64,000 nucleotides of DNA from Spirochaetota bacterium (GTDB taxonomy: Bacteria > Spirochaetota > GWE2-31-10 > MWDO01), in NCBI GenBank assembly GCA_031549085.1, contig JAVBQL010000018.1:13917-77916 (forward strand). Direction: 5' to 3'. The translations under genes and the position numbers were made by a program. Below, in pieces: positions 29,568-46,964 of this stretch (position 1 is its first letter; each line of letters begins with the position of its first letter). The notes beneath the pieces are model-generated. The model had not been told where the DNA came from. It searched no databases and saw only the letters and a program-made list of their open reading frames with translations.

Positions 29568-29571
29568 TATG

Positions 29572-30149: not shown

Positions 30150-30284
30150 TATACTCTTAAACCGTGTAAAGTGATATAACCTTTTATATCAAAAAAGTCA
30201 ATATTTTTCGAAAAACTTTGCCTATTTTTTTTAGTTTTTTGATAAAATAGAAAAAATATTTTTTATATGAAACAACAATAAGAT

Positions 30285-31163: not shown

Positions 31164-31224
31164 TTTTTTCCCTTAATATAAAATTATGGAAGTTTTTTTT
31201 TGCTTTATATATAAATTAGTTAGT

Positions 31225-32139: not shown

Positions 32140-32168
32140 GTTAATCCAAAACTTAAGGAGGGTTATTT

Positions 32169-33146
32169 ATGAGTTTTTCAGCTTTACAGGATTTTATTAG
32201 AGTAAGACGTGGTCGTAAAGATTTAACTTCTACTAGCTGTAAAAATGTTAGGTTATACTTTGCAGACGGAACTTCACAAAAGATTCCCGTGGCTTGTTAT
32301 CTATATATTTTAGAGACAAGAGAAACCGATCTATCTATGCAGTACACTTATGGAGTTGTAGAGAAGATAGTCAGAAGGTCAAAAAATGTTAGCCGTGTTT
32401 TGCTTGCTGGCGGTGTTTCTGTTAGAGTCTACACTACACCAGCTTTACAGGTAGGTTCTTTTGTCAAGACAATTCCTGTTAAGGTAAAACAATCTAAAAA
32501 AGATTATGTTTTTTATAGAACTCATGCTGAAGTGAATTATCATAGAGAATATAAAATTATTGAATCTGTTATGGCAAGGAAACTTAAAAATTTCAGATTG
32601 CCTAAACATTTAACTATACAAGATTTAGCAATGGAGTATTTCAAATATCTTTATAAAAATAACGCATTTCTACGTTATCAAACCAGATCCTACTTAATAG
32701 TTGCTACAAACAATTGGATTAAGAATTTTATAAAATCTAGGGTTGTAAAAGAAGTAGATGTTACCCGTTCTCTCAACGACTTGGTTGGAGATGAAGGAGA
32801 TCAAATTGAATATATCGATAGATTACAGTATTCAAGTGCCTCTCAAGACCATATGGCAGACTGTCATATGAGCAATCTTGAGACAGCTGAATATTTAAAG
32901 TTTATTAGAGAAAAATTAAAAAAACAAGATTCTATACCTGCTTTAGAAGGAAATGGTAAAAACTTAAAAAGTATAACTTTTTCAGAGTTATTTGAACTTC
33001 TATATGAAAAAGAGACAATTGATTCTATAGCTAAAAAGATAGGTTATGGGGTTACTGCAGTAAGGACAGTGGTAAAAGAATTGCATACTTACTTAAAAAG
33101 AGTAACGGAAACTTGCTATGGCTACAAAGAACTTATGGCTAATTGA
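32169..33146 (+). CDS. putative transcriptional regulator with C-terminal sigma-70 region-4-like HTH
   Basis: C-terminus ...ETIDSIAKKIGYGVTAVRTVVKELHTYLKR resembles a region-4 / LuxR-type HTH. First gene of the same-strand block. Confidence 0.35.
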   Translation: MSFSALQDFIRVRRGRKDLTSTSCKNVRLYFADGTSQKIPVACYLYILETRETDLSMQYTYGVVEKIVRRSKNVSRVLLAGGVSVRVYTTPALQVGSFVKTIPVKVKQSKKDYVFYRTHAEVNYHREYKIIESVMARKLKNFRLPKHLTIQDLAMEYFKYLYKNNAFLRYQTRSYLIVATNNWIKNFIKSRVVKEVDVTRSLNDLVGDEGDQIEYIDRLQYSSASQDHMADCHMSNLETAEYLKFIREKLKKQDSIPALEGNGKNLKSITFSELFELLYEKETIDSIAKKIGYGVTAVRTVVKELHTYLKRVTETCYGYKELMAN

Positions 33147-33459
33147 TAAACCTCCTCTGGATCAGAGGCTAGTTGTGGTGCATTCAGGTAATTTTCTGGA
33201 CATCTATAATCAGTATTATGGAGGCAGTTTTGGTAAACTTCAGTTATTGGTTCATTCTAATTTAAGAATAGAAAACCTCTTAAAGTTTGTAGAAGACTAT
33301 GAGGATGACCTAGAGGTTTTTGTTTTGGGTTTTGTTACTCTCACTTTTATTTCAAGATTTACCCGAGTAGAAAATCTACGGAAGTATCAGTTGCAAGATA
33401 TTAAGATTGAGTCTGAAAATCAGATTTTGTTAAATGAAATTAAGAAATATTGTAAATAA
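33118..33459 (+). CDS. hypothetical protein
   Basis: 113-aa ORF, no motif. Confidence 0.3.
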   Translation: MATKNLWLIDKPPLDQRLVVVHSGNFLDIYNQYYGGSFGKLQLLVHSNLRIENLLKFVEDYEDDLEVFVLGFVTLTFISRFTRVENLRKYQLQDIKIESENQILLNEIKKYCK

Positions 33460-33502
33460 GCTTTAGAATTATGTCATATCTATTTATATGGTTGTTTAAA
33501 GA

Positions 33503-33527
33503 CATCTCTGAAAGTTTTTCAGAGATG
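33503..33527 (+). other. perfect 9-bp hairpin (CATCTCTGA / TCAGAGATG)
   Basis: Seen directly. Lies immediately 5' of the terminator at 33533. Confidence 0.5.
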
Positions 33528-33532
33528 CTTTA

Positions 33533-33572
33533 CTAAAGTAGGTCAATTGTTAATTTACCTACTTTAGTTTTT
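33533..33572 (+). terminator. intrinsic terminator
   Basis: 11-bp perfect stem CTAAAGTAGGT/ACCTACTTTAG, 13-nt loop, followed by TTTTT. Confidence 0.6.
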
Positions 33573-33590
33573 AAATTATTAGGAGTAGCT

Positions 33591-33809
33591 ATGAGCGGTA
33601 AAAAACAAAAATTATTAAGGCAAAAAGTTAATGAAGAGTTTATAAATCAGGGGGGGATACCTACTAACTCTTATGAGTCCATACCCCATAGGAATGATAC
33701 CATAGATGAAAAAGGCAATGTTATACGGGGTTATACTTATCAGCGAAAAGGTAGCGAGGGCAATCTCAAGTCAATGGTTCGTAAAATTAATAAGAGGTCA
33801 AAGATATAG
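33591..33809 (+). CDS. small basic protein
   Basis: 72 aa, Lys/Arg-rich ends, RBS AGGAG upstream. Confidence 0.35.
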   Translation: MSGKKQKLLRQKVNEEFINQGGIPTNSYESIPHRNDTIDEKGNVIRGYTYQRKGSEGNLKSMVRKINKRSKI

Positions 33810-34402
33810 TGGAAATAAAGATTAATATGTATAAAGATATACATCTTTTAAAGTTTATTTTTCCTAATATTAAAATTAACTCCTATGGCTATATAATTTT
33901 TAGAACTGCAGATTCTCTCTATGACTTTAGTGGCTCGGAGCTGACGCTGGTTCAAGACGTGGGTGGTTTTAATCTTCTCACTCAAAAGGGGTTAATTTTG
34001 TTTTTAAAACATATCCAATTTTTAAAAAATGATACTTTAGATCGTTTCTCAAAAATTCAAATTAAGGGCATTACAGAACTCTATAAGTTAATTTCTAAAT
34101 ACAGAATTAAGTTGTTTTCACTAGCTGGCGAGGATGATCAGTATCAATTAGATATTTTTCAATTACCTATTAGAGATAGACTGGAAGCTGTTTTTAATGG
34201 AGAGATTAAATTAAAGTCCATTCTTAAAATTCTCAATCAAACTTTTGATAGCTCCACTCACAGATTTCTTAATCCTTTTTACGTTAAGAAATTATTTGAG
34301 TTTAAATCTAAAGTGTTAAAGCATGAGGTTTTAAAGGTTGAGTTATCTGGCAATGATTTAATGGATACACTTCAATTGGTTTTATGTATAAGGAGTTTTT
34401 AG
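33809..34402 (+). CDS. hypothetical protein
   Basis: 197-aa ORF, start overlaps the upstream stop (ATAGTG). Confidence 0.35.
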   Translation: MEIKINMYKDIHLLKFIFPNIKINSYGYIIFRTADSLYDFSGSELTLVQDVGGFNLLTQKGLILFLKHIQFLKNDTLDRFSKIQIKGITELYKLISKYRIKLFSLAGEDDQYQLDIFQLPIRDRLEAVFNGEIKLKSILKILNQTFDSSTHRFLNPFYVKKLFEFKSKVLKHEVLKVELSGNDLMDTLQLVLCIRSF

Positions 34403-34403
34403 A

Positions 34404-34688
34404 GTGACAAAAGATTATGTAAAAAATAGATATGACTACTATGAGGGGTACATTACTAAGTTTTTAGGTTTAAAGAAAGATATGACACTAGAGTCATTCC
34501 GTCAGGTGCTTATGAATGATCTTGAGCTTTTAATACTTGAGATTTGCTATGATACCAATAGAGCTTATAGCTATTTAAGTGGCAATCCTAATGAGTATAC
34601 AAAAAGTTCTATTGTAGAGTTTGTTAAGTATTTAGAGAGTCTAAAATGGAACTTGAAATTTTTATATGAAGTGGAGACAAGAACATAA
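34404..34688 (+). CDS. hypothetical protein
   Basis: 94-aa ORF tightly coupled to the upstream gene. Confidence 0.3.
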   Translation: MTKDYVKNRYDYYEGYITKFLGLKKDMTLESFRQVLMNDLELLILEICYDTNRAYSYLSGNPNEYTKSSIVEFVKYLESLKWNLKFLYEVETRT

Positions 34689-34823
34689 GGAGTAAATATT
34701 ATTTCCCTTATGTTCTTTTTTTGTGAAAAGAAGACAGAAGAAGATGTCACATAAAGTAGGATAAATTATGAACTACCTCCTTTTGGTAGTAAGTTTTAAA
34801 TTATAAATTATGGGAGTAAATTT

Positions 34824-35732
34824 ATGGGAGTGTTACCGTTTGGAACAAAGATGGAGTCATCTTTTCTTGAGAGATTTAAACCAATAGCTGGTACTAAACA
34901 AAGAATATATGTTTTGGACTGGACAAGAGTGTGTGCTTTAGAAACACATTTTGTAAATAACCCAGATCATATAGGTAATTATAATTGCATAAAAGGTATT
35001 TGTTGCAGTCATTTTGGAATACCTAGGCAGACATATAATTTTATATGTTATCACTATTCAGGGCAGGGCTATGAAGGTCAACTAAAAGTTCTAACTCTAA
35101 ACAAAGATCAATATGAATCTTTTATTGAAAAAGCTCAAACAGATAATTTAGGGAACTTCGATTGGATTGTATCTGCTAAAGATAAAGGACGATATACACA
35201 GGCTGAATATAACAAAGCTAGTGGAGGTATTATTTTAAATAATGCACCGGAAGATTTTATAGGAGAGCTTAAAAAAGCAGTAGAAGACTTTTACTCCTTT
35301 AGTGAGAAGTTTTTAGCTAAAACAATCACAGAAAATGACTATTTTAATATGATCCAAGATATTGGAGGGGAGGATCAAAGTCAACAACCCACCATTCGTA
35401 TGAAGGGACCAGGTAACTCAAGTGGTTTACAGACAGGAACCCAACAGAGACGGATTACTGGAGGTATTGGTAATACTAATAATACATCTAGTAAGGTGAA
35501 TGCTTTTGGGAGCAATAGTTCATCTAAAGTTAATAGCAGTCCATTTTCAAGTAAGGTTAATGAAGTACAACCAACGACTGCACATTTTGGCAATGAAGTT
35601 AAAGAGACTAACAATGAGGTTACTATCTCTAATGACGAGGTAGATTCTATTAATAGTGAGTTTAATAATACTGTTAACACCACTGATAAGATTGATCCAA
35701 AAGATTTAAATAGCATGCTGGACGAAGAGTAG
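34824..35732 (+). CDS. possible ssDNA-binding protein (gp32-like?) with Cys/His cluster, low-complexity region and acidic C-terminal tail
   Basis: H..H....C...CC.H......C.H cluster near the N-terminus, Ser/Asn/Thr-rich linker, C-terminal ...DPKDLNSMLDEE. Sits at the head of the recombination/replication module. Speculative. Confidence 0.25.
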   Translation: MGVLPFGTKMESSFLERFKPIAGTKQRIYVLDWTRVCALETHFVNNPDHIGNYNCIKGICCSHFGIPRQTYNFICYHYSGQGYEGQLKVLTLNKDQYESFIEKAQTDNLGNFDWIVSAKDKGRYTQAEYNKASGGIILNNAPEDFIGELKKAVEDFYSFSEKFLAKTITENDYFNMIQDIGGEDQSQQPTIRMKGPGNSSGLQTGTQQRRITGGIGNTNNTSSKVNAFGSNSSSKVNSSPFSSKVNEVQPTTAHFGNEVKETNNEVTISNDEVDSINSEFNNTVNTTDKIDPKDLNSMLDEE

Positions 35733-35741
35733 GAGTTTTCA

Positions 35742-36284
35742 ATGGTTAAGGTCTTTATAGATCCAGCCTACTTTTCTACTGGTCTTTTCATTTTAAATGA
35801 GAAGACCAGTAAGTTTTCTTTTGATGCAGTAGTCTGTGAGGGAGACTCTCTAAAGAGCTATGAAAACTATCTACACAAGGCAGACATAGTCTCTAATATG
35901 GTAGTAAAGAGAATAGCTCACTATAATCCAATTGAGGTGTATGTTGAAATACCCCCTCCAATAGGTCATACATCTGCGGGGTTATATGGGCTATCCTTTT
36001 TATTAGTAACACGATTAAAATCACAAGGTTATAGGGTTTTTGCAATTCCCACACAGCTAGTTTACAACTTTCAAAAGAAATACTATCAATCCAAAAAACA
36101 TAAAGACAGACTATATATTGCTTTAGATCTTTTTAAACAACAGCGGATTTTAAATAACGGTATCACTTTTGATGGTATTATGCACTTAGAAAATAACATA
36201 GATACTGCGACAGCCTATCTATTTTATGTCTTTAGTAATGAGCGAATAAAGACAGATAAGAAGTTTAAGTTAAAGGAGATATAA
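35742..36284 (+). CDS. RuvC-like Holliday-junction resolvase
   Basis: N-terminal VFIDPAYFSTG (compare RuvC ILGIDPGSRVTG), central YVEIPP (Glu), later DRLYIALD acidic pair. Confidence 0.45.
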   Translation: MVKVFIDPAYFSTGLFILNEKTSKFSFDAVVCEGDSLKSYENYLHKADIVSNMVVKRIAHYNPIEVYVEIPPPIGHTSAGLYGLSFLLVTRLKSQGYRVFAIPTQLVYNFQKKYYQSKKHKDRLYIALDLFKQQRILNNGITFDGIMHLENNIDTATAYLFYVFSNERIKTDKKFKLKEI

Positions 36285-37405
36285 TGAGCAACGATTTTTT
36301 CTCAAGTTATGAGAATGAGGTATCTACTGAAGATCTTTATATTAAAACAAATTACTTACCTTTTGATTTAGTTACTGGAGGTAAGGGGCTACCGCTAGGG
36401 GGATTTACACATCTTTATGGAGGCAATGGTTTGGGTAAAACTACCCTGCTCTATACTGTAGTTAAGAATTTAGTTATCAGAGGAGAGGGAGTTTTATGGG
36501 TAGGAGCGGAGAATACCAAAGAACTTGCTAATTCAATGGGGCTTTATGGTGAGGAGTCTTTTTTAAAAAAGCCAGAATACAGCCATTTAAAAGATAAATT
36601 TCGATATCTAGATGCTGGATTTTATACCGAGCTGGAGGAAATTTCAAGAGAGTTTATTAAGTCACCCTACAGGGTTATGGTTATAGACTCTATGACTGCG
36701 TTTTGTGCCTCACCAGAGACAATAAAAGAGAAAGGTATTGAAGATGTCCTTGTTGGACTGGATGCAAGAATTCAAACACAGTACTTTAAGCTCTATGCTA
36801 ATCTTTTAAAATCTACTAAAAAATCTATTATCTTTGTTACGCAATCTAGAGCTGATATAGGGGGAAGATCCTTTGGTTTTACCGCACCACAAGATAAGCC
36901 CGCTACAGGAAATGCTGGTTTGTTTTATTCCATATTGAGAGTTCTTTTACAGGGGGATGCTACTCTAAAAGCAAGCGATATGGGTCAGCAAGGGGATCAT
37001 CAGGTTGGTAAGACAGGTTGGCTCAAAGCGGAAAAGAACAGAATGGCTCTACCTTTTGTTAGGCTACCAGTATTTATTCTTTTTGGTAAGGGAGCAAGTA
37101 ATATTCAAGCTCTGCGGTCCTATATGGAAGCTATGAGCTACTTTAAATCTGCAGGATCAAGATTTCAAATCAGTTTTAAGGGGACTGAAGTATCAGTTGC
37201 TGGTCGTAAGGGACTGCTAGATTGGATTAGCAATAACATGGATGCACTTATGGAAGATGTCTATGAGAACATTTCGGCTTACTACAACATACTCTCTCTG
37301 GGGGCTTTTAAGAACATAAAGGGACAAGCTCCAATGGTCGCTACTAGTGAAGTGCAGATAGAAGTTCCTAGTAGCTCTATTTTAGAAGATAAAAAGGAAG
37401 CTTAA
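36284..37405 (+). CDS. RecA-superfamily recombinase/ATPase (UvsX/RadA/Sak4-like)
   Basis: Walker A GGNGLGKTT, Walker B-like VMVIDSMTA, RecA-core-like SIIFVTQSRADIGG...GN.AGLFYSILRV. Confidence 0.55.
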   Translation: MSNDFFSSYENEVSTEDLYIKTNYLPFDLVTGGKGLPLGGFTHLYGGNGLGKTTLLYTVVKNLVIRGEGVLWVGAENTKELANSMGLYGEESFLKKPEYSHLKDKFRYLDAGFYTELEEISREFIKSPYRVMVIDSMTAFCASPETIKEKGIEDVLVGLDARIQTQYFKLYANLLKSTKKSIIFVTQSRADIGGRSFGFTAPQDKPATGNAGLFYSILRVLLQGDATLKASDMGQQGDHQVGKTGWLKAEKNRMALPFVRLPVFILFGKGASNIQALRSYMEAMSYFKSAGSRFQISFKGTEVSVAGRKGLLDWISNNMDALMEDVYENISAYYNILSLGAFKNIKGQAPMVATSEVQIEVPSSSILEDKKEA

Positions 37406-38536
37406 ATGGATTTAAAAATCTCTGTCAAAGATTATAAGAAAATTAGAGATGCAAAGGTAGATATAGTTGGACTTACTATGGTTAAGGGGGACAACTCTGC
37501 TGGCAAGTCTACTCTCATAAAAGCCTTAAGATCCTTTATTTTGAACCAGTATAGCCCATCATCCAATCGTTATGGCACTTCTAAAGCAGAGGTCTATGTT
37601 AAGGTAGGAGACGAAGAAGTTACTGCCATAAGAACAGACTCTACTTCTTATATCTATAAGGAACAAACTTTTTCAAAATTAGGTAGGGATAATCTTTATA
37701 AGATTATCCCAGCTTTTCCTTTAAGGGTACTAGAGCTTAATGATGATAAGTTTATGCCTAATTTTGTATTTCAAAATGAGATACCAATTTTTGGACAGGT
37801 AGATATCTATAATCTGTTCAGTTCTATGTTTAAGGTTTACTCAGATCTATCAGGCAAGTTACTAGAGATTAAAACTACCAATAGTCAAAATAATAAAAAG
37901 CTAGACTCTCTTTTGGAGAGTAATGAGAATTATCAGGTTGAATTAAATAAGATAGAGCAGTTTATTAAGAATCACTTTATTTATGAACATGAGTATAATC
38001 AATACCTCGTATATGAGGAACTCAAAGTACAAAGTGATAGACTTGAAAATGGGTTAGGACAGATCCAAAATCTGCTGGACAGTCCAATTTCAGCTGATCG
38101 AAGTTTAAGAGATATGCAGATCTACGAGGGCTATAATTTTAATGGACTTGAGTCTTTTGTTGCTTTTGCAAGTAAGTTTTCTATGTTAGCAGAGGCTTAT
38201 ATTTCCAATCAACGTGATATACAGGCTCTACAAGAGGTTGAAGATAGTGAAAAAGTGTGTAGGGATCAGCTGGAGTTTTTAGAGGCTTGTCAGCATTATA
38301 ATGAATTATCTTTAGAAATTGATGAGTTAAACAATTCATTAGTTCTTGAGTTTTTTATACGAGAAAGTTCAAAAATTTTATGTCTTATTAAGCAGTATTG
38401 TAGCAATGATTTATCAATGGCTCAATTGGTTTCAGATATATCTCAATTAGAGAATGAGATATATGCCATTGAAGATGAGTTGGCTAATTATGATATATGT
38501 CCACTTTGCAATCAGGAGTGGGAGCATAAACATTAG
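37406..38536 (+). CDS. Rad50/SbcC-like ATPase, N-terminal head and coiled coil ending at a CxxC zinc hook
   Basis: Walker A GDNSAGKST, long heptad-rich region, CPLC motif 9 codons before the stop. Confidence 0.6.
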   Translation: MDLKISVKDYKKIRDAKVDIVGLTMVKGDNSAGKSTLIKALRSFILNQYSPSSNRYGTSKAEVYVKVGDEEVTAIRTDSTSYIYKEQTFSKLGRDNLYKIIPAFPLRVLELNDDKFMPNFVFQNEIPIFGQVDIYNLFSSMFKVYSDLSGKLLEIKTTNSQNNKKLDSLLESNENYQVELNKIEQFIKNHFIYEHEYNQYLVYEELKVQSDRLENGLGQIQNLLDSPISADRSLRDMQIYEGYNFNGLESFVAFASKFSMLAEAYISNQRDIQALQEVEDSEKVCRDQLEFLEACQHYNELSLEIDELNNSLVLEFFIRESSKILCLIKQYCSNDLSMAQLVSDISQLENEIYAIEDELANYDICPLCNQEWEHKH

Positions 38537-38545
38537 GAGATTACT

Positions 38546-38779
38546 ATGTCAGCAGGTGCAATAGCAGAGATAGAGAATTTACAGAGTAGACTCAATAAAA
38601 ATATAGTTCTTTTAGAAGAGCGAAAAAAGAGACTAGAGTCTCTTATACAAGATCAGATGCAGGTAACTTCAGAATTGGAGTTGCTATTAAAAGATAGATA
38701 TATCAATAAAACAACGGAAGAAGCAATAGAACTAGAGTACGAGAGAATAAAGAGAGAGATAGTTACTTTTAGTATTTAA
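38546..38779 (+). CDS. Rad50/SbcC-like coiled-coil fragment (separate ORF with its own RBS)
   Basis: 77 aa, entirely heptad/coiled-coil. AGGAG 7 nt upstream of the ATG. Confidence 0.45.
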   Translation: MSAGAIAEIENLQSRLNKNIVLLEERKKRLESLIQDQMQVTSELELLLKDRYINKTTEEAIELEYERIKREIVTFSI

Positions 38780-38830
38780 TATTTTATGTTGTGTATAATT
38801 TATTTAGAAATTTATTTTGGGTAATTTATT

Positions 38831-39718
38831 ATGTTAGATTTTGTTAGTTATGATTTTAAAAATTTAAATATCATTTTAGGTAAATTTAATAATATTTTAA
38901 GAGATAAAAATAATTATATTAATTTTAAGAATTTAAGTGAAAAAGAAAAAAAGATTTTAAGTGAAAAAGAGTCGGTGTCCATAGAATTGTCAGCATATGC
39001 TGACAGGGAGTGGACACCTAATTTATTACAGATAGTTAAAGATTTAAATTACAATCGAAGCAGAAAAATAGAGATAGATACGAATATAGCTAAACTTGAT
39101 ATTTCAATTGAAGAGTTAAAAAAGATACTTAAGCTTGATGACAAAGCTTTTAAGTTCTTTTCCTTTATGTTGGACAAGATGACAGAGAGGTATATCCAGT
39201 CTTTTGAGAAGTCTCTTAACGAGATCTATTATTTTGTTTATAGGGATGAGTCTAAACAGATACGACTGGACTCTACAGAGAGCAGAGGTAAAAAAGTTTT
39301 GAAACTAAAGATATGCTCTATTGTAGATGGTAAAACTTATGAAGAGGACATTCAAGATAGTGGTCATTCTGTTTCAGTGGTTTTAGGTAGTGTTCTATTG
39401 GTTTACTATATTGTCTACTGTAAGCTTCCAAGAATACTATTTTTTGATGAGACTTTCAGCGGTCTCTCTACATTAACCATCAGTCGCTTCTTTCAGTTGC
39501 TACAAAACTTTTCAAAAGATTTAGGTTTCAAGTTTCTTATTATATCTCACGATCCCCGCATTGTCAATTTCATGGATCGTATCTATCTGGTTAAGGACGG
39601 GGTCTATTCTTTGGTTAAAGAAAATCTAGATGATGAAGTCCAATCTTTTTTGGAAGATTTAGCTGATGGTTCTACTGAGGGCTTTAGTGTTAGTGACAGC
39701 AATACAGTTGGGGGGTAA
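38831..39718 (+). CDS. Rad50/SbcC-like ATPase, C-terminal coiled coil and head
   Basis: Coiled-coil N-terminus, then an SGH (signature-like) motif, Walker B ILFFDETFSG and D-/H-loop ...LIISHDP. Confidence 0.55.
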   Translation: MLDFVSYDFKNLNIILGKFNNILRDKNNYINFKNLSEKEKKILSEKESVSIELSAYADREWTPNLLQIVKDLNYNRSRKIEIDTNIAKLDISIEELKKILKLDDKAFKFFSFMLDKMTERYIQSFEKSLNEIYYFVYRDESKQIRLDSTESRGKKVLKLKICSIVDGKTYEEDIQDSGHSVSVVLGSVLLVYYIVYCKLPRILFFDETFSGLSTLTISRFFQLLQNFSKDLGFKFLIISHDPRIVNFMDRIYLVKDGVYSLVKENLDDEVQSFLEDLADGSTEGFSVSDSNTVGG

Positions 39719-39721
39719 ATT

Positions 39722-39961
39722 ATGGATTTTGTTATTTTTGTCTTAACTCATATTTTACTTTTTATATTTGCTTTTTTAAAAGTTCTTTTACTGTTCATTG
39801 TATTATTTGTTCTTTATTGCATGATAGATAAGAATTTCAGTCACAGGTTGGCTTCATTTTTAATAGATTTAGTGAACAGAGCAGAGGAGATAATGAAAGA
39901 ACAAGATGATTTAGAGAGTAATGAAGATGATGAGGACGATATCAACGATTCAAAATTATAA
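39722..39961 (+). CDS. small membrane protein (2 TM) with acidic tail
   Basis: Hydrophobic N-terminal 35 aa, then C-terminal ...NEDDEDDINDSKL. Confidence 0.35.
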   Translation: MDFVIFVLTHILLFIFAFLKVLLLFIVLFVLYCMIDKNFSHRLASFLIDLVNRAEEIMKEQDDLESNEDDEDDINDSKL

Positions 39962-40002
39962 ATACCTATGTGACAGGGTTCTAGTGTGAATGGGAGGCTT
40001 AA

Positions 40003-40266
40003 ATGTTTAGAATTAGAAAGATTGAGTATAGACGATTTGCATTAGGGCTTACAAGAGGCAACTTAATTCATAATTGTAAGTTAGCCTCTTGTAAAGTAGG
40101 ATCTTCAGCGTGCAGTCTTTGTCCAAATTATCTCTTTACAATAGGCAAATATCTCTTTTGTGGAAATAAGAAACTTACTTTTGTTAAGTGTCCTAGAGTT
40201 AAAGCTACAGCTGTTATGTGTTTTCATAGTTCAAAGTGTGATATGTGTGATGTTCAGAGGGCTTAA
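40003..40266 (+). CDS. Cys-rich small protein (putative zinc-binding)
   Basis: 11 Cys in 87 aa, including CSLC and CDMC pairs. Confidence 0.35.
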   Translation: MFRIRKIEYRRFALGLTRGNLIHNCKLASCKVGSSACSLCPNYLFTIGKYLFCGNKKLTFVKCPRVKATAVMCFHSSKCDMCDVQRA

Positions 40267-40268
40267 AA

Positions 40269-40682
40269 ATGGATGATAGAAAGATAGATGAGTCAGGTTT
40301 TAATCCTGTTGATAACATAAAGCTACCTCCAAAAACTTATAAAACTAATCATAAGGACTACTATGAAAGAAACAAGTCTAAAAGTATTAATCGAGCGAAT
40401 AATCATTACCATTTTTGGAAAAATACAGCTCAAAAAATAGCCAAAGTTTATGATGAATTTGTGAGAAAAATGGGTGTTGTTTTTGTTAGAAAAGGAAACC
40501 TCTGGGGCGTTATTAGTTTGGAGATGGATGAGTTGATTCCATGTGTATATGATAGCATTGTTTCTTATTCTGTTAAAACAGGAGTGGCTATTGTCTTATA
40601 TGAGGGTAGTTGCCGTACCGCCAATAAGGATGGTTTAATAGAGTCAGTTATTTCCAATGGGTTTAGGGATAATAAAAAATAA
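40269..40682 (+). CDS. small protein with a WG-type repeat
   Basis: KGNLWGVISLEMDELIPCVYDSI matches the WG-repeat consensus seen in the host gene at 7928. Confidence 0.35.
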   Translation: MDDRKIDESGFNPVDNIKLPPKTYKTNHKDYYERNKSKSINRANNHYHFWKNTAQKIAKVYDEFVRKMGVVFVRKGNLWGVISLEMDELIPCVYDSIVSYSVKTGVAIVLYEGSCRTANKDGLIESVISNGFRDNKK

Positions 40683-40717
40683 GTTGAGATTGAGTAGCTA
40701 AAAGGGAGGGTTATTTT

Positions 40718-41065
40718 ATGGACTCTAATAAAAAGAAAGCTGATGTAGTTGCTAATCTTGAGGTTTTTCAGACATTGATTAGTGATAGAACATCAAAAAT
40801 AGAGAGTTCTTCTGATTATGCAAATTCTAATTCACTTTTAGAATTTCAACAAGATTTAGGTAATTTTAGCTTAATAGATTTCATTGAGTTGCTGTGTAAA
40901 TGGCTATATGAGTTTAGAGAGGAGTTCTCTTCAAGTAATGTGGATTTGCTTTTTAGCTTTTTAATACAGAGAGCTAGAGAGTATAAGATGTCAGATGACT
41001 TATTCACAATGGTTTTAAGAACCTTTGATTTGTTATATTTCTATGATGGAGAGGCAGATAAGTAA
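40718..41065 (+). CDS. hypothetical protein
   Basis: 115-aa ORF. Confidence 0.3.
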   Translation: MDSNKKKADVVANLEVFQTLISDRTSKIESSSDYANSNSLLEFQQDLGNFSLIDFIELLCKWLYEFREEFSSSNVDLLFSFLIQRAREYKMSDDLFTMVLRTFDLLYFYDGEADK

Positions 41066-42053
41066 AGTGAAAAAAACTAAACTAAGATTTGATTGGAATG
41101 GAGATAATATTTTAGATAGAAAAACTATATTTTTGAATTGGTTGCATAGTAAATCTTCATACAAGTACAAAAGGTATTTGGGATCTCCTTTGAGATATGG
41201 TGGTGGAAAATCTTTAGCAGTTGGAAATATTATTGAGCTTTTACCAGAAAAAATAACAAAAGTTGTCAGTCCATTTATTGGTGGAGGTTCTGTTGAAATT
41301 GCAATTGCTAAAGAACTTGCTATACCAGTAATTGCTTATGATGTTTTTGATATGTTAGTTAACTATTGGCAAATACAAATTAGTAATCCTCAAGGATTAT
41401 ATGAATTTTTAACAAATCTCAAACCAACAAATGAAGAGTATGACAGAGTAAAGAAAGAACTTTCAAATCATTGGAATAAAAAAGATGGGTATTTAGGTGG
41501 ACTTGACGATTTGGAGAGAGCAGCGTACTATTTTTTTAATCATAATTTATCATATGGTCCTGGATTTTTAGGTTGGATGTCTTCTATATACAAAAATGAA
41601 AAAAGATATATTAGTATGATTGAAAAAGTGAGAGATTTCAAAATAGACAATATGCAAGTTTTTTGTGAAAATTTTGAGAATTCTATTTCTAAACATAATG
41701 AAGATTTTCTTTATTTAGATCCGCCATATTTTTTGGATGGAGATAGTAGGATGTTTAAAGGAATTTATCCTATGAGAAACTTTCCAATACATCATAACAA
41801 GTTTAGACACGATGTTTTGGCTGAATTACTAAAAAAACATAGAGGTGGCTTTATATTATCTTATAATGATTGTAGTTATGTGAGAGAAGCTTATAGAGAT
41901 TTCAATATTGTTGAGGTAGAGTGGCAGTATACAATGGGACAGGGAGAGACTCGCATTGGTAAAAACAGATTAGAACGTGAGTATGATAATGGGAATGTAA
42001 AATCATCACACGAACTATTAATTATAGGAGAAATAAAAAATGAAAATCTCTGA
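41025..42053 (+). CDS. dam: Dam-family N6-adenine DNA methyltransferase (D12 class), orphan
   Basis: Motifs YGGGKS (compare WAGGK), SPFIGGGSVEI, YLDPPYF (DPPY), about 45-aa N-terminal extension. No adjacent endonuclease. Confidence 0.8.
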   Translation: MICYISMMERQISKVKKTKLRFDWNGDNILDRKTIFLNWLHSKSSYKYKRYLGSPLRYGGGKSLAVGNIIELLPEKITKVVSPFIGGGSVEIAIAKELAIPVIAYDVFDMLVNYWQIQISNPQGLYEFLTNLKPTNEEYDRVKKELSNHWNKKDGYLGGLDDLERAAYYFFNHNLSYGPGFLGWMSSIYKNEKRYISMIEKVRDFKIDNMQVFCENFENSISKHNEDFLYLDPPYFLDGDSRMFKGIYPMRNFPIHHNKFRHDVLAELLKKHRGGFILSYNDCSYVREAYRDFNIVEVEWQYTMGQGETRIGKNRLEREYDNGNVKSSHELLIIGEIKNENL

Positions 42054-42153
42054 AGTAAAGACCGCTTTTAAAATTGCAGACAAGTTGTTATTAGAAGAAA
42101 TAGAGGTTGTAGAAATCTAAAAACAGGGGGTAATAGCATGACAACAGAAAAGA

Positions 42154-42516
42154 TTGAAAATGGTGATTTTGATGAGGAGGATATATGAGAAAACCTATAT
42201 ATATAGAATAGGTATCAAAATATATAGACTAATCCAAAATTGGATATTAGAAATAAAGCGAAGAAGGTTAATAAAAATATTAAGAGGATTAGGCTATAAC
42301 TGGTGGGGGAAATTAGCTAAAAAGTCAATCCTCTCTGCTTATGGAGTTATTATTAAAACTCAAGATCCCTGCACTAAAAAGTGGGGATATGTGTATAAAA
42401 ATGACAATTCTTTAGCAATTGACATAATATTTGATGAGATTGTTTGGTATGATCGAGGTTTGTGTTTAGGGTTGAGAGATGGAGAGATATTATATTCAAA
42501 TATTATGTCTAGATAA
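42154..42516 (+). CDS. hypothetical protein with WG-like motif
   Basis: ...TKKWGYVYKNDNSLAIDIIFDEI.... The true start is probably internal. Confidence 0.3.
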   Translation: MKMVILMRRIYEKTYIYRIGIKIYRLIQNWILEIKRRRLIKILRGLGYNWWGKLAKKSILSAYGVIIKTQDPCTKKWGYVYKNDNSLAIDIIFDEIVWYDRGLCLGLRDGEILYSNIMSR

Positions 42517-42605
42517 TTAATAGAAAAAACAAAGTGAAAAATTGACTACAATCACTTGTTAAGTGCTAGTAGTCAATATAAAGGATTTTTAAAGGGAGTA
42601 AAAGA

Positions 42606-42920
42606 ATGAAAGTATTTATCAGTAATGGATTAAGAGACAAAGAGAATCCAAAAGAGTATGTTGAGAGATGCAGAAAAGTAGTTGAAGAGGAGATGGCAAA
42701 GTTATTTCCAGATGAAACTATTGAGAGAATTGATACCTATTTTGAGGATTTTAATGGGAACAGACTACAATTTTTAGGTAAGTCAATTATGGAAGGGCTG
42801 GCGGTGTGTGATGTTGCTGTCTTTATGGATGATTGGCAATGGTTTGAAGGTTGTAGAAGTGAACATTTCATTGCAACACAGTATGGGATACCTTGCTATT
42901 ATTTTAGCACAAAGAATTAA
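42606..42920 (+). CDS. DUF4406-like (nucleoside 2-deoxyribosyltransferase-fold) protein
   Basis: MKVFISNG...LAVCDVAVFMDDWQWFEGCRSEHFIATQYGIPCYYF tracks the DUF4406 consensus (MKIYIAGPM...CDAIALLPGWE.S.GAR.E...A..LG.PV). Confidence 0.55.
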   Translation: MKVFISNGLRDKENPKEYVERCRKVVEEEMAKLFPDETIERIDTYFEDFNGNRLQFLGKSIMEGLAVCDVAVFMDDWQWFEGCRSEHFIATQYGIPCYYFSTKN

Positions 42921-42933
42921 GAAGTGGTGTCTA

Positions 42934-42965
42934 CCCAACTGAATTATCCATTCAGTTGGGTTTTT
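42934..42965 (+). terminator. intrinsic terminator
   Basis: CCCAACTGAAT-tatcc-ATTCAGTTGGG followed by TTTTT. Confidence 0.7.
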
Positions 42966-42992
42966 AAAAAGAGTTAAGGGAGATTAAGTACT

Positions 42993-43457
42993 ATGGGAGA
43001 TCTTAATATTAAGGATTATACAAGTTATGAGTATGTAAAAAGGAATCATTATGGTGTGGCTATTTTAAATATGGGAGGCTTACCTCACTTACATTTTTTA
43101 TTGGTAAACTACAGTGATAATGTTAATTCTTATCTTCTTTTACTGGATAGAGGGTTAGTATCTCAAACATTTTCTCATATGGAGGGTGGTAATTTTAAAG
43201 GAGACATACAAAATAGAGTAATAGAACTTGCAACTGAATACTATATGTCCTTTCAAGACTCTAAATTAGAACTAGAGAAGATAGTAAAAAAAGAAGTTTG
43301 GGATCTCTTTATAAATAAAAAGAAGCGTGTATTTATACAGGCATATAACAATGTAACTAAACATATAGAACAAACTGAAGCACGATGTTTTTTCATGTTT
43401 GATGGTTTTTTAGACACAGACGGAAAAGTTAAGCTAATAGAAGATATAAAGGAGTAA
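42993..43457 (+). CDS. hypothetical protein
   Basis: 154-aa ORF. Confidence 0.3.
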   Translation: MGDLNIKDYTSYEYVKRNHYGVAILNMGGLPHLHFLLVNYSDNVNSYLLLLDRGLVSQTFSHMEGGNFKGDIQNRVIELATEYYMSFQDSKLELEKIVKKEVWDLFINKKKRVFIQAYNNVTKHIEQTEARCFFMFDGFLDTDGKVKLIEDIKE

Positions 43458-43460
43458 GTT

Positions 43461-43862
43461 ATGAATTGGAAATATTTTTTAGGAATAGGATTAACTATTG
43501 GGATAATAGTATTTCTGCTTGCCTCTGGATTGTTCATACGTGGGTGTAAAAGCATAGCAATGTTTTCTGGAGATGTAGATGAAGCTTGGGCTGTTAGAGC
43601 TGATGCCAGTAGGAGATTACAAAACTATCATGAGTTTGAAGATATGTATAATCTCATAAAATCTAGTAAAGCTACATTAGTTCTAAGATTAGAGAATGGA
43701 GAAAAGCTTAAAGATTTAGCACCAGAGATTATGATCATCAATAATGATATGATTGCTAGGTATAATTCAAGGTCAAAGCAATATGATCGCAATATGTGGA
43801 AATCAGAGCATTTACCCTATCAGCTGGAGCTGATAAGTAGTATTGAAGATTTAAGAAAATAA
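43461..43862 (+). CDS. single-pass membrane protein (possible holin/spanin-type lysis component)
   Basis: N-terminal TM helix NWKYFLGIGLTIGIIVFLLASGLFI. Confidence 0.3.
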   Translation: MNWKYFLGIGLTIGIIVFLLASGLFIRGCKSIAMFSGDVDEAWAVRADASRRLQNYHEFEDMYNLIKSSKATLVLRLENGEKLKDLAPEIMIINNDMIARYNSRSKQYDRNMWKSEHLPYQLELISSIEDLRK

Positions 43863-43879
43863 GTCTAAAGGAGTTATAA

Positions 43880-44011
43880 ATGTCAATAGAAAAAACTGAG
43901 AATGGTGATTATGTAATCGCTTGGCTTGAAGAGGCACAAGAAATCACTAATCCAAATCAAGTAATAGATGATTTATTTGATCATATTAATAGTGGTAAAA
44001 GGAAAACATAA
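43880..44011 (+). CDS. small ORF (43 aa) starting MSIEK
   Basis: Not in the ORF track (<60 aa). Shares the 14-nt start ATGTCAATAGAAAA with the next gene. Confidence 0.2.
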   Translation: MSIEKTENGDYVIAWLEEAQEITNPNQVIDDLFDHINSGKRKT

Positions 44012-44012
44012 T

Positions 44013-44213
44013 ATGTCAATAGAAAAGATGAATTATAATCATTATGATTTATTTTGTAATGAATGTGGAGAACTGATAGAGGGTGGGTTTGAGAGCTTTG
44101 ATGATGTTGTAAGATGGAAAAAGAACAATAAACATTTATGTAAATCAGTGAAATCTCCAAGTGGAGAATGGAGTGATCATTGTGACGAATGTATGGATAA
44201 GTTAAAAAATTAA
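44013..44213 (+). CDS. small zinc-ribbon protein
   Basis: CNEC...(31)...C...HCDEC: two CxxC pairs. Internal MSIEK start preferred over ORF-track 43968. Confidence 0.35.
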   Translation: MSIEKMNYNHYDLFCNECGELIEGGFESFDDVVRWKKNNKHLCKSVKSPSGEWSDHCDECMDKLKN

Positions 44214-44222
44214 GGAGAGAAT

Positions 44223-44720
44223 ATGAAAAGAATATTTTTATTAATAGTGCTTCTCGTTGGGATATTATTTATCAATGCAAAATGTGAGTTAGATGAAACA
44301 AGTTATATCTCAAATAAGAGTATTGAATATGACTCAAGAAAAAAGGTTGAAGTTCCAAAAAATGAGTATTTTATTGAAAGGGAGAAGGTTGCTGAATGGT
44401 TTAAAAATTGGGATAGCCCTAGTAAAATATCTTATTTATATATTTTTACTCAACAAGGATGTATTGGATATTTTGTTGTAAGTGGAAAACCTGTGTCTAA
44501 TAGATCTTATTTATTACCTGAATATATTTATGATGGGCATACTAATTATGGTTTTGAAAAACAAGCACCATCTCTTGATGGAACTTATGGTGAGGATTTA
44601 TATGGAATAAGATTCAAGTCTGCAAATGGAGTATGGCATGAGTTTGGCGGTATGAACTTTAGTTACATATATGCAGACAAACCAATTACAAGTTTAAGTA
44701 AAAATTTATTAGGAGATTAA
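44223..44720 (+). CDS. lipoprotein / secreted protein
   Basis: Signal peptide LLIVLLVGILFINAKC. Confidence 0.35.
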   Translation: MKRIFLLIVLLVGILFINAKCELDETSYISNKSIEYDSRKKVEVPKNEYFIEREKVAEWFKNWDSPSKISYLYIFTQQGCIGYFVVSGKPVSNRSYLLPEYIYDGHTNYGFEKQAPSLDGTYGEDLYGIRFKSANGVWHEFGGMNFSYIYADKPITSLSKNLLGD

Positions 44721-44722
44721 AT

Positions 44723-44908
44723 ATGCGTTTATATGGAACAGACGATGGTAAACCAACTGAAGAAATGAAAGAGAATCTGTTAAATGATGCTCTGTCAGAT
44801 TTGGAAGAATTCAAGGATCATATAGAGATAGATGAAGAAAGTGCAGAACCAACAAACGATGATGATGTAGAAATATATAATGCTGTTTGTCAAGCTACTT
44901 TATTTTAG
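44723..44908 (+). CDS. small acidic protein
   Basis: 61 aa, Asp/Glu-rich. Confidence 0.25.
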   Translation: MRLYGTDDGKPTEEMKENLLNDALSDLEEFKDHIEIDEESAEPTNDDDVEIYNAVCQATLF

Positions 44909-44963
44909 AAGAGGCAATAGATAAGCTTCAGGATAGAAAAAAGTAAATATTTAGGGAGGAAGT

Positions 44964-45521
44964 ATGAAAGTCTTTAGTAGATTATCATTAAGGTTATGGT
45001 TGCCAATCAAATTAGTTTTGAGTGGCCTTTTTGACTACAGGAGATATAAGGTTGAAGAAGAGATAAACTTCATGGAAAGGTCATCTCTTAATCCGCATAA
45101 AATAGATTGGAGTAGAAAAGGGTTATATAGAGATGATAAGCTTTTTGGAAAAACCCAATTTGATTGGCAACTGGACGCTATCAATCTATTTGTTAGAGGT
45201 GGGGATTGCAACTCTATCCATCGTCTTTGGCAGGTGTGGTATCATATTCAGGGCTACACTGCTTATCTAATCACTTTAAAAACAAAGCCATTTAAAAATA
45301 GTCACTCCTTTGTTGTTTTTCAAAAGCCATTAGATAATGGTGCAATAAAGTGGTTTATGAGTGATTATGGGGATGAGATAGAACTTGATTCTAGTTTTAA
45401 TGTGGCACTCACAAAGTTAAAAGAGATCTACCCAAAGTTAGATAAAAGCTATACAAAAGGTGTCCAAATAAAAGCAATGGCTTTGCAGGACATAAACTTC
45501 AAAGTCATCAAAGTTGTTTAA
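44964..45521 (+). CDS. possible papain-fold cysteine peptidase (NlpC/P60- or CHAP-like), candidate endolysin
   Basis: GGDCNSIHRLW (Cys) followed about 45 aa later by NSHSFVVF (His), resembling the Cys...His spacing of NlpC/P60 or CHAP domains. Weak. Confidence 0.25.
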   Translation: MKVFSRLSLRLWLPIKLVLSGLFDYRRYKVEEEINFMERSSLNPHKIDWSRKGLYRDDKLFGKTQFDWQLDAINLFVRGGDCNSIHRLWQVWYHIQGYTAYLITLKTKPFKNSHSFVVFQKPLDNGAIKWFMSDYGDEIELDSSFNVALTKLKEIYPKLDKSYTKGVQIKAMALQDINFKVIKVV

Positions 45522-45544
45522 TTAAAAAATGTTTAGTAGGGAGA

Positions 45545-45934
45545 GTGTCTGCTATGGGTGAGAAAAAAATTGTAGAAGTTGATTCTATGTTTGATTCAGA
45601 TGAGTCTCTCTTTAATAAAGATGACTTCGGAGGCGGAGTTTTAAGCTCTACCATAGATGAGATAACGAAACTCTCGAATGCTAACTTTAGTATGATGGTG
45701 GCTCAATCACTAGAGTGCAATAATAAAGAGATTATGAAGATATTAAATCCACCTTTCTATAGTTTGATTCATGCAGTCACTCATTTGGCTCTATTCGATA
45801 ATACCTACCCTAATCCATCTCTAAAAGAAAAGTTAGCTCTTGTTAAAAAAGAGCTAACTAGTTTTACTGCTGTTTTAGAATTAGTGTGTGAGACTGAAAA
45901 TAAGTTGTCTCAACTTACAGAGGATAAAGTATGA
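45545..45934 (+). CDS. hypothetical protein
   Basis: 129-aa ORF. Confidence 0.3.
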   Translation: MSAMGEKKIVEVDSMFDSDESLFNKDDFGGGVLSSTIDEITKLSNANFSMMVAQSLECNNKEIMKILNPPFYSLIHAVTHLALFDNTYPNPSLKEKLALVKKELTSFTAVLELVCETENKLSQLTEDKV

Positions 45935-46007: not shown

Positions 46008-46964
46008 GTGAAAATTATAGTAGTTGGAGATCCACATTTCTGGGATAGAGATATTTCAAGCAGATGTGATAACTATCAAGACACTTCAATCAATAAGTTA
46101 AAACAAGTTGTAGAGTATCAAAAAAGATATCAAGTGGATTGTGTAATCTTTTTGGGGGACTTTTTTCATGCTCCCCTAACCTCCAAAGAGTATTTAAATG
46201 AGTTGGTTTTGGAACTTAAAAAGTTTCAGTGTCCATTGTACACACTAGTCGGAAATCATAGGGGCGATCAGTCTTATAAAGATTGGAGGTCTTTTGAAAA
46301 GAAAGATTTAGGGACTCTAGTTTTCACTGGTGTTTTAAATATTTTATTAGCATATGAGAGTAGCAATGGGTCTATTGTAGGTATGTCAGCTTATGAAACT
46401 TTATATGATGTTCTATTTGAGATGAATAGATACACCGAGACAACCAAGCCAATTAAAAATGAAGCTATACATATTTTAGCTTGCCACCACTTTATAAAAG
46501 GCAGTGGCTCTTCTTTTGAGGATGATTTAATTTTAGATGTCTCAGAAGTTAAACAAACTTTTCCTAATCTCAAATATATTCTGGCAGGCCATGATCATGC
46601 AAAGTATGATACAAAAATAATTGATGGAGTTAAGATAATACGACCTGGAAGTTTGATGAGAACATCATCAGCTGGGGATCAAGATAGAAATATATGTGTT
46701 GCTTATCTTGATACAGATATGGATATAGTTGAATATCTACCTATCTCTTCTTTAGCTTATAAATCTCTTTTTGTTAACAAGGATCATAAAAAAGATATTC
46801 AAGATAAAATGATGATAGATCAAATTGTATCTAATTTTTCAAACGGTGACAATTTAGATACAATTATGGCAGAGGATTTATTAAAGGAGTCGGTTGAACA
46901 GATTGATAATCTGGAAATCAGAGACTATATAAAAAGTATTTTAAGAAGTATGGGGGTTATTTAG
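46008..46964 (+). CDS. Mre11/SbcD-like calcineurin-fold phosphoesterase (GTG start)
   Basis: Metallophosphatase motifs GDPHF, GDFFH, GNHR, ACHH, GHDHAK in canonical order. Confidence 0.65.
   Translation: MKIIVVGDPHFWDRDISSRCDNYQDTSINKLKQVVEYQKRYQVDCVIFLGDFFHAPLTSKEYLNELVLELKKFQCPLYTLVGNHRGDQSYKDWRSFEKKDLGTLVFTGVLNILLAYESSNGSIVGMSAYETLYDVLFEMNRYTETTKPIKNEAIHILACHHFIKGSGSSFEDDLILDVSEVKQTFPNLKYILAGHDHAKYDTKIIDGVKIIRPGSLMRTSSAGDQDRNICVAYLDTDMDIVEYLPISSLAYKSLFVNKDHKKDIQDKMMIDQIVSNFSNGDNLDTIMAEDLLKESVEQIDNLEIRDYIKSILRSMGVI

Follow-up and report, generated by a model that had tools for sequence, protein, structure and literature searches.

Genes for a Rad50/SbcC-like ATPase split just past the zinc hook in a Spirochaetota genome and across a family of relatives

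Rad50 and SbcC are, to our knowledge, treated universally as single chains with a head-coil-hook-coil-head architecture. Here we describe a window of 64,000 nucleotides (nt), the whole stretch of DNA analysed, from a Spirochaetota bacterium (assembly GCA_031549085.1, contig JAVBQL010000018.1, positions 13,917-77,916 of the forward strand), in which three consecutive open reading frames (ORF1, ORF2 and ORF3) carry the recognisable parts of a Rad50/SbcC-like ATPase as separate genes, the first of which stops just past the CxxC zinc hook. All positions given below are window coordinates. The split is family-wide, gene order is conserved at the seven loci where it can be read, the ATPase motifs are present, and fusions of pieces occur in relatives. 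We consider it likely that the N-half (ORF1) and the C-half (ORF3) form one functional Rad50/SbcC-like ATPase that works with an Mre11-like nuclease. The split is apparently a natural and undescribed way of building a Rad50/SbcC enzyme; a full-text literature search, with subscription-only papers outside it, found no description of a split Rad50 or SbcC.

Three genes and a cut shared by relatives

ORF1, ORF2 and ORF3 all stand in one reading frame, with the following features (lengths in amino acids, aa; A1, A3 and A7 are alignments).

37406..38536, + strand: ORF1 (376 aa), N-half of the split Rad50/SbcC-like ATPase, with head lobe I, ascending helix, terminal CPLC hook and EHKH tail
37487..37513, + strand: Walker A GDNSAGKST (aa 28-36), read from the sequence; G33 and K34 invariant in A3 and A7
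37757..37810, + strand: Q-loop block PNFVFQNEIPIFGQVDIY, family-specific; Q123, within the motif PNFVFQ, is invariant in the 34-sequence A3 and nearly invariant in A7
38498..38509, + strand: CPLC zinc-hook motif (aa 365-368); C365 invariant and P366 nearly invariant (A3, A7)
38522..38536, + strand: His-rich tail EHKH and TAG stop (38534-38536), the family-typical N-half end
38535..38539, + strand: AGGAG ribosome-binding site of ORF2, overlapping the ORF1 stop, 6 nt before the ATG, a translational-coupling arrangement
38546..38779, + strand: ORF2, a small all-helical protein of 77 aa; probable middle piece, first segment of the return coil
38780..38830, + strand: AT-rich non-coding spacer of 51 nt with two in-frame TAA codons and TATAAT; G+C content (GC) ~13-18%, per-codon log-likelihood -0.55
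38831..39718, + strand: ORF3 (295 aa), C-half, with N-terminal coil and head lobe II
39356..39388, + strand: signature-like motif DSGHSVSVVLG (aa 176-186), a divergent form of the Rad50 S-G-G; G178, S180 and L185 nearly invariant, G186 invariant (A1)
39431..39469, + strand: Walker B/D-loop RILFFDETFSGLS (aa 201-213); D206 and E207 invariant (A1); aligns with the ABC Walker B in PDB matches
39539..39553, + strand: H-loop IISHD (aa 237-241); H240 nearly invariant (A1)

The original prediction, made from the DNA letters, had described three ORFs here, with a Walker A head, a long coiled coil and a CPLC hook in the first, a pure coiled coil in the second, and a return coil with signature-like, Walker B and H-loop elements in the third, and this description is borne out. 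ORF1 ends, as it had said, right after the hook, with eight residues (NQEWEHKH) between CPLC and the TAG; the AGGAG that it had assigned to ORF2 and the 51-nt gap that it had placed before ORF3 are both present.

The concatenated pieces were used as query in an exhaustive HMMER search, which gave 970 matches, 163 of them below 1e-10; the best 150 were reclassified lobe by lobe. Lobe I only was found in 51 (median 408 aa) and lobe II only in 98 (median 226 aa, range 116-350 aa); the remaining match is ORF2 itself, and none carries both lobes. The N-halves end in a limited number of ways. Twenty-seven of the 51 stop no more than 20 aa past a CxxC, with the hook consensus CP[LV]C(G) and tails of 4-20 residues. 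Another 16 end in a terminal Cys...Cys-Pro variant, C-x(5-9)-C-P, which replaces the CxxC (e.g. P0030, P0043, P0050, P0055, P0061; GCPVLAQGLCPV) and may represent a different hook geometry. Three (P0047, P0070, P0075), which form one clade in the head-domain tree, run on for 76-81 residues past the hook, the length of ORF2, and five are of other types, including apparent fragments. Since N-half ends cluster after the hook in these 51 relatives, the cut is a family property and not a peculiarity of the window genome.

The short tails that follow the hook are themselves unusual in composition. His and Cys make up 10.2% of the 4-20 residues after the CxxC, against a background of 2.0% (binomial P~4e-14, uncorrected for phylogeny), and 17 of 33 post-hook tails hold at least two of them, often as H-x-H 5-10 residues past the CxxC; the EHKH of ORF1 is one example. 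Enriched tails occur in P0029, P0058, P0063, P0071, P0076, P0077, P0101, P0120, P0145, P0150, the Bacillus prophage protein BC1852, and the N-halves of loci L018 and L028, among others. This pattern suggests that CxxC...HxH may complete zinc coordination within one chain in some N-halves. Two N-halves, P0072 (795 aa) and P0119 (578 aa), have inteins near the P-loop, with a splicing domain in both and a LAGLIDADG domain in P0072, which fits an important gene of replication or recombination. A further intein-containing gene was seen at the end of L018 (20387-20804).

Gene order can be read at seven loci: the window, L028, L018, L021, the Bacillus phages 0305phi8-36 (L022) and vB_BboS-125 (L023), and the prophage phBC6A51 (L025). 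In all seven the order is N-half, small ORF, C-half, the small ORF encoding a helical protein of 77-92 aa, and the loci span 32-55% GC and Gram-positive to Gram-negative hosts. L028 carries P0003, the closest known relative of ORF3 (46% identity). Its N-half C-terminus reads ICPLCGSEGVHFAC / SIDICPLCGSEGVHFAC, each followed by the stop; after a 33-nt spacer with AAGGGAG comes a 79-aa ORF in another frame, whose stop is overlapped by the start of the C-half. L018 (a ~117-kilobase (kb) contig found in two samples, 55% GC) and L021 (a 45-kb contig) have N-halves that end 17 aa past CPTC or CPVC, and an ORF of ~83 aa begins before the N-half has ended, with an overlap of 8 nt in L018, where the frame differs, and of 23 nt in L021. 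Layouts equivalent to that of ORF1 and ORF2, with a ribosome-binding site and a restart, are found in other frames in L018 and L028. A MazG-type gene precedes the C-half in both contigs (L018 9427-10004; L021 11307-12093), together with a 61-aa ORF in L021.

The original prediction had pointed to related phages as a comparison, and the same cut is indeed present in them, including the three Bacillus elements. In 0305phi8-36 the genes are gp8 (Metallophos, AAA_23 lobe I, coil and CPTC), gp7 (92 aa), gp6 and gp5 ('ATPase'); gp8 ends 17 aa past the hook, and here an Mre11-like nuclease is fused to the N-half. The order in vB_BboS-125 is gp32, gp33 (AP2 domain), gp34 (78 aa) and gp35, and that in phBC6A51 is BC1852 ('SbcC'), BC1853, BC1854 (77 aa), BC1855 ('chromosome segregation ATPases'), BC1856 and BC1857 ('SbcD'). 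Comparison by hhalign assigns the Bacillus proteins to the family, with a match probability of 98.5% for the N-half BC1852 (E=2.4e-15) and of 88% for the C-half BC1855 (E=2.8e-6); the Q-loop block is also common to ORF1 and BC1852 (NFxFQ). Unrelated genes recur at the junctions between pieces, namely the MazG-type pyrophosphatase, the AP2-domain protein and other ORFs (0305phi8-36 gp6, vB_BboS-125 gp33, BC1853). The split sites appear to be insertion hot spots, reminiscent of the gene splitting by mobile elements in T4-like phages.

A naturally split Rad50 was one of the options in the original prediction, and it is the one that the split in all 149 classifiable relatives and in the seven loci favours; another was a sequencing or pseudogene artefact. 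Some features of the window would fit a single Rad50/SbcC gene of a degenerating prophage, interrupted by nonsense mutations or errors: only the TAG and three sense codons separate ORF1 from ORF2 in their common frame, the element adjoins bacterial chromosome, and the proteins of all three ORFs are database singletons. Nevertheless, we regard such decay or mis-sequencing as extremely improbable. An independent Logan assembly (L001) of run SRR23967709 is 100% identical over 30018-43574 (13.5 kb), stops included. ORF1 stops exactly where N-halves end family-wide, no relative spans both lobes, and the small ORF lies off the N-half frame in the nearest relative, L028, and in L018. In addition to the AGGAG of ORF2, the per-codon log-likelihoods of ORF2 (0.22) and of the AT-rich first 48 codons of ORF3 (0.28) are coding-like, whereas that of the spacer is not (reference genes, 0.29±0.08 in frame and -0.64±0.22 off frame). 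Around the three ORFs, the genes are intact and follow the order of those in the phage contigs L018 (~117 kb) and L021.

The common frame might also be explained by readthrough of the TAG, programmed or by suppression, which would yield ORF1 and ORF2 as one protein like the natural fusions; in the clade where they are fused, the N-half-plus-small proteins align nearly collinearly across the junction. However, a shared frame is expected by chance once in three, ORF2 has a well-spaced AGGAG and an ATG of its own, and the closest relative, L028, uses different frames. TAG recoding or suppression was tried as an explanation and rejected, as TAG ends 18 of the 61 window ORFs and no suppressor is found among the seven tRNAs. 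Readthrough is thus highly improbable. As far as sequence data allow, the three ORFs are supported as a natural split, neither a pseudogene nor a sequencing artefact.

The region between ORF2 and ORF3 is unusual. An AT-rich island at 38746-38979 (GC ~11%, 10-18% in a ~180-nt stretch) covers the end of ORF2, the spacer and codons 1-48 of ORF3. It is the sole such island in the phage-like half of the window, all others in the window being intergenic, and no repeat copies of it were found elsewhere in the window. A promoter and terminator scan of 36-41 kb gave no excess over shuffles, the promoter-like sites of the spacer included, and is uninformative in AT-rich DNA. Given that the N-terminus of ORF3 is ~15 aa longer than in its closest relative, the island may represent a small inserted segment or a promoter. 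The start codon of ORF3 is somewhat uncertain (ATG at 38831 versus GTG at 38975).

Concerning ORF2, we lean with caution toward a true structural third piece of the ATPase. A helical ORF of matching size stands between the halves at all seven loci, and in one clade the N-half itself continues into an equivalent tail of ~80 aa. Among other lineages, the small proteins resemble one another and these fused tails weakly, yet above the level of shuffled sequences (several at 0-12 of 500 shuffles). When ORF1 and ORF2 were joined and modelled with AlphaFold2, ORF2 was predicted as a single helix (379-452) with a predicted local distance difference test score (pLDDT) of 85-93 over its first ~40 aa, and the coil lengths of the window, ~227 aa outgoing and ~190 aa returning (ORF2 plus the N-terminal region of ORF3), match only when ORF2 is counted. 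Against this stands the sequence of ORF2 itself. Compared with a profile of the other small proteins it scored 3.9 bits, which 109 of 1000 shuffles equalled or bettered and which is not significant, and its similarity to the fused tails of P0047, P0070 and P0075 is likewise not significant; its membership rests on position, size and helicity, without significant sequence similarity. As the junctions gather unrelated genes and small helical ORFs are common in phage genomes, a two-piece ATPase composed of ORF1 and ORF3, with ORF2 as an unrelated small gene at an insertion-tolerant junction, is unlikely but deserves serious consideration.

Other collections were also searched. A word-indexed protein search returned nothing with the concatenate, only three proteins with the C-half alignment, and with P0003 only itself on a 1.2-kb contig, an informative result. 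Among phage records, megablast and tblastn gave no family matches for ORF1 and only generic ABC proteins for ORF3, and tblastn with P0082 gave nothing. Four IMG/VR scans (ORF1, the UvsX-like protein, the C-half alignment and the N-head alignment) found no relatives, and a scan of a genome-contig collection, outside which the window's own genome lies, found only ordinary ABC transporters at residues 200-275. The metagenome scan yielded one locus, L021. N-half-like genes were also seen in Microbacterium phage Magritte (L024, gp155) and in an uncultured 485-kb phage (L026, LR745208.1, 3495-4862), where the gene ends 13 aa past a CPVC hook; these two are excluded from the locus count. No recognisable small piece or C-half was found within 3.5 kb of either gene, and the pieces may be dispersed in some genomes.

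Identity of the ATPase and its presumed nuclease partner

What kind of ATPase do the halves form? For lobe I, the fold predicted by AlphaFold2 is Rad50-like. The model of ORF1, built on a 44-sequence alignment, has a mean pLDDT of 83.6, above 90 in the head, and long predicted helices at 134-224 and 245-360. In a Foldseek search with this model, Rad50 N-lobes came out on top (1F2U, 9A9J, 3AUY, 1II8; E 4e-5 to 1e-4), followed by SMC, RecN and RecF; the best chains were 1F2U_A and 1F2U_C (1F2U E=3.9e-5, template modelling (TM) score 0.49 by target; 9A9J TM 0.55). At the sequence level, the SbcC-like phrog_77 matches ORF1 at 3e-10 over the coil and hook region and ORF3 at 7e-4, and the N-half profile matches Rad50 chains in PDB with E 1e-8 to 1e-7 over ~45 residues. 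For lobe II, ORF3 matches the Walker B to H-loop regions of solved ABC structures; Walker B (ILFFDE), D-loop (SGLS) and H-loop (SHD) are present and conserved, and the signature is a divergent DSGHS with conserved G..S.

Several observations weigh against a Rad50 assignment or a simple assembly of the pieces. The Rad50 matches of lobe I cover only ~45 residues, a region common to OLD, PtuA and RecF, and the lobe II sequence matches generic ABC transporters better than Rad50, with a divergent signature (SGHS). Foldseek with the joined ORF1-ORF2 model retrieved no Rad50 hook structure. In several relatives the outgoing helix measures ~270-355 aa, whereas the small piece and the C-half coil together amount to ~140-180 aa; because the outgoing helix is so much longer than the return pieces, simple zipping-up may not give the full picture, or there may be additional pieces. 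The sequence evidence is modest, and genomic context is the strongest argument for Rad50/SbcC identity.

This context consists of a collinear module of UvsX, Mre11-like, primase and clamp-loader genes. Between the window and L018 or L021 we count 10-13 collinear orthologs, including the UvsX-like protein, both halves, the Mre11-like protein, a 468-aa protein, toprim and the clamp-loader ATPase. Two genes of the module are the following.

36284..37405, + strand: UvsX/RecA-like recombinase gene (Pfam RecA E=4.9e-17; phrog_97 UvsX-like E=1.8e-20), directly abutting ORF1
46008..46964, + strand: Mre11/SbcD-like phosphoesterase, presumed nuclease partner (Pfam Metallophos PF00149 E=8.8e-16; phrog_100 SbcD-like E=2e-9)

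UvsX-like orthologs precede the N-half in L018 and L021 as well (35-36% identity, E~1e-58). The 46008 product has all five phosphoesterase motifs (GDPHF, GDFFH, GNH, HH, GHDH), and its gene is, as the original prediction had noted, the only Metallophos/Mre11-like one in the window, starting 6,289 nt downstream of ORF3. The original prediction had gone on to call the ATPase uncoupled from its Mre11-like partner. The distance is real, but it reflects a 6.3-kb block (39722-45934) that has no counterpart in L018 or L021, where orthologous Metallophos genes (30-33% identity, E~1e-33) lie 1.6-2.0 kb past the C-half; in phBC6A51 the SbcD gene comes two genes after the C-half. By synteny, then, the 46008 gene appears to be the conserved partner, its present distance being due to a lineage-specific block inserted into a gene order that is otherwise maintained. 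SbcC and SbcD genes that lie apart have already been documented in phiKZ-like phages (PMC5105663), and the uncoupling is not remarkable. Partnership of the ATPase pieces with the 46008 nuclease is what we infer from this arrangement. The block holds many small ORFs with no assigned function and the following genes.

40003-40266: Cys-rich ORF of 87 aa
41025-42053: Dam-like DNA methyltransferase
42606-42920: nucleoside 2-deoxyribosyltransferase-like ORF

The third option of the original prediction was an unrelated ATPase of a defence-like module. A defence-type or other non-Rad50 SMC/ABC ATPase (Lamassu LmuB, Gabija GajA, OLD, Septu/retron PtuA, PARIS AriA or MADS-like), with no relation to the Mre11-like gene, would account for weak PADLOC matches (LmuB at 3.8e-6 over ORF1 4-374; mad3 at 1.4e-10 on ORF3; HEC-01A, Old and GajA on the P-loop region) and for PtuA, OLD and GajA among the lower-ranked Foldseek matches. 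Indeed, these systems share a Rad50/SMC-class P-loop lobe and some have coiled-coil insertions. However, most of the PADLOC matches (1e-4 to 1e-6) cover about the first 45 residues (4-45), a region common to Rad50/SMC-class heads, whereas Rad50 lobes rank first structurally and the hook consensus CP[LV]CG is that of Rad50/SbcC. The defence ATPases are single polypeptides with a partner or domain of their own (LmuA, GajB, Toprim, HNH PtuB, AriB), and none of these partners was found among the genes scanned with PADLOC, where ORF2, the Mre11-like gene and two neighbours gave no match. Moreover, the pieces sit in a replication and recombination module whose gene order is conserved across phage contigs, 0305phi8-36 has an Mre11-type nuclease and the N-half in one protein, and SbcD follows the system in phBC6A51. 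We therefore consider a defence-type ATPase very unlikely.

A putative assembly and its relation to known systems

How could the pieces work together? In the Rad50/SbcC-like reading, ORF1 would contribute head lobe I with Walker A and Q-loop, followed by the long outgoing helix and, at a free C-terminus, the CPLC zinc hook; ORF2 would most likely begin the return helix on the hook side; and ORF3 would complete that helix and add head lobe II with its signature-like motif, Walker B, D-loop and H-loop. The pieces would zip up non-covalently, through the antiparallel coiled coil and the packing of lobe I on lobe II, into a Rad50-like protomer. Two protomers would then sandwich ATP between their heads, with zinc bridging or capping the hooks, and the complex would work with and regulate the Mre11-like nuclease (46008), so that DNA ends are processed for recombination and replication that depend on UvsX, as gp46/gp47 do in T4. 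Physical assembly, zinc binding, ATPase activity and the role of ORF2 are read from sequence here and are to be taken as predictions. A head made from two chains would be feasible, since the catalytic domain of Pyrococcus furiosus Rad50 (1F2U/1F2T) was reportedly crystallised from separately expressed N and C fragments. That engineered domain resembles the split family in that lobes I and II are said to assemble from separate chains into an active head, and its N-fragment chains are the top matches of ORF1; it differs in being a laboratory construct with neither coil nor hook, whereas the division in the split family is a natural, conserved one that leaves coil and hook complete.

Rad50, SbcC and T4 gp46 share with the split family the layout of a two-lobe ABC head, a long predicted helical insertion between the lobes with a CP[LV]C(G) hook motif, an Mre11/SbcD-type phosphoesterase in the same module and an adjoining UvsX/RecA-like gene. 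They differ in that the split family is cut 4-20 residues past the hook and a second time ~80 residues further on, into two or three genes, at times with unrelated ones between them. Due to the cut after the hook, the hook lies at a free C-terminus and the apex of the predicted coiled coil is not covalently closed; due to the split of the chain, the coiled coil cannot be intramolecular. The His/Cys-rich post-hook tail and the divergent signature (SGHS or GGS) are further differences, and identity to canonical Rad50 is detectable only at the profile level. With three ORFs here and none of the 149 classifiable relatives spanning both lobes, in place of the single polypeptide of Rad50, SbcC and gp46, the machine is Rad50/SbcC-like but a variant, not a canonical member.

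A more speculative possibility, which we think doubtful, is an open-apex Rad50. Here the CxxC on the free C-terminus and the His/Cys pair that follows it in about half of the members, ORF1 (CPLC-x5-H-x-H) among them, could form a Cys2His2-type site instead of, or besides, the intermolecular Cys4 hook, while the return strand would come from separate small subunits. If so, the apex would be closed only non-covalently and the ring could open there, making a natural separation-of-function system for the roles of hook and coil.

Gene splitting is not foreign to phages. The T4 topoisomerase is divided into gp39 and gp60, and nrdA of Aeromonas phage Aeh1 is split by mobE. As presumed for the ATPase described here, an essential enzyme is made as pieces that come together once translated, and in some relatives of the window locus mobile or accessory genes (AP2-domain, MazG) stand at the split sites. 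However, no homing endonuclease lies at the window junctions, and the split described here is ancient and universal in the family, located at the presumed hook apex and not sporadic. Split subunits of RNA polymerase and DNA polymerase have also been described in phages of the phiKZ type (PMC5105663).

Part of the family has been in view before. Fusions of Mre11 and Rad50 of the Mimivirus R555 type, including gp8 of 0305phi8-36, were described by Yoshida, Claverie and Ogata in 2011 (PMC3175470), who noted for gp8 that one P-loop NTPase segment 'was not observed'. We identify the missing segment as the separate gene gp5, three genes downstream. As a member of the split family, gp8 links the N-half functionally to an Mre11-type nuclease, and it differs from the window, where the nuclease is a separate gene. 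In GenBank EF583821, gp8 is labelled 'DNA repair exo subunit 2' and gp5 'chromosome segregation ATPase'. Sequences of such genes have stood in public records, each under its own label, since the early 2000s, and the pieces are now annotated 'exonuclease', 'hypothetical protein' and 'chromosome segregation ATPase'. With the pieces labelled separately and the second segment recorded as missing, SbcC/Rad50 is under-called or mis-called in phage genomes.

Rad50/SbcC is one of the DNA-repair machines studied in most depth, yet there is still debate over the way in which its hook and coiled coils govern Mre11 nuclease activity and DNA tethering. The split family, which includes cultivable Bacillus phages and prophages, would offer a ready-dissected machine for asking which covalent connections matter. 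A split Rad50 architecture would surprise specialists and offer a tractable natural system for questions about hook and coiled coil.

The surrounding element and neighbouring genes

The phage setting assumed in the original prediction holds for one half of the window. From ~33 kb on (33100-64000) the window is a phage-like module, collinear with metagenomic phage contigs, whereas its first ~31 kb (1-31200) are ordinary bacterial chromosome, with the following genes.

1143-2540: TilS
4903-6954: TonB-dependent receptor
19446-20744: RimO
22045-24036: UvrB
28258-29403: M23 peptidase
29571-30149: seven tRNAs (Gly, Leu, Lys, Arg, His, Arg, Pro)
30285-31163: PhzF-like

GC is uniform across both halves (~32%), and no integrase was recognised in the window. 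Because it adjoins bacterial chromosome, the element is probably a prophage or a phage-derived island rather than a free phage genome; it may also be a remnant or an assembly join.

Two ORFs of 302 and 180 aa lie upstream of the UvsX-like gene (34824-36284), an order that is kept in L018 and L021 (E 1e-16 to 1e-26). The C-terminal half of the 302-aa product is of low complexity and rich in Ser, Asn and Gly. Neither product matched a known family, and both may be further members of the recombination module. Near the right end of the window, four large consecutive ORFs occupy 53871-63678 (603, 1422, 747 and 455 aa). No Pfam match was found for the 603-aa and 747-aa products and no PHROGs match for any of the four, which are candidates for highly divergent polymerase or structural proteins.

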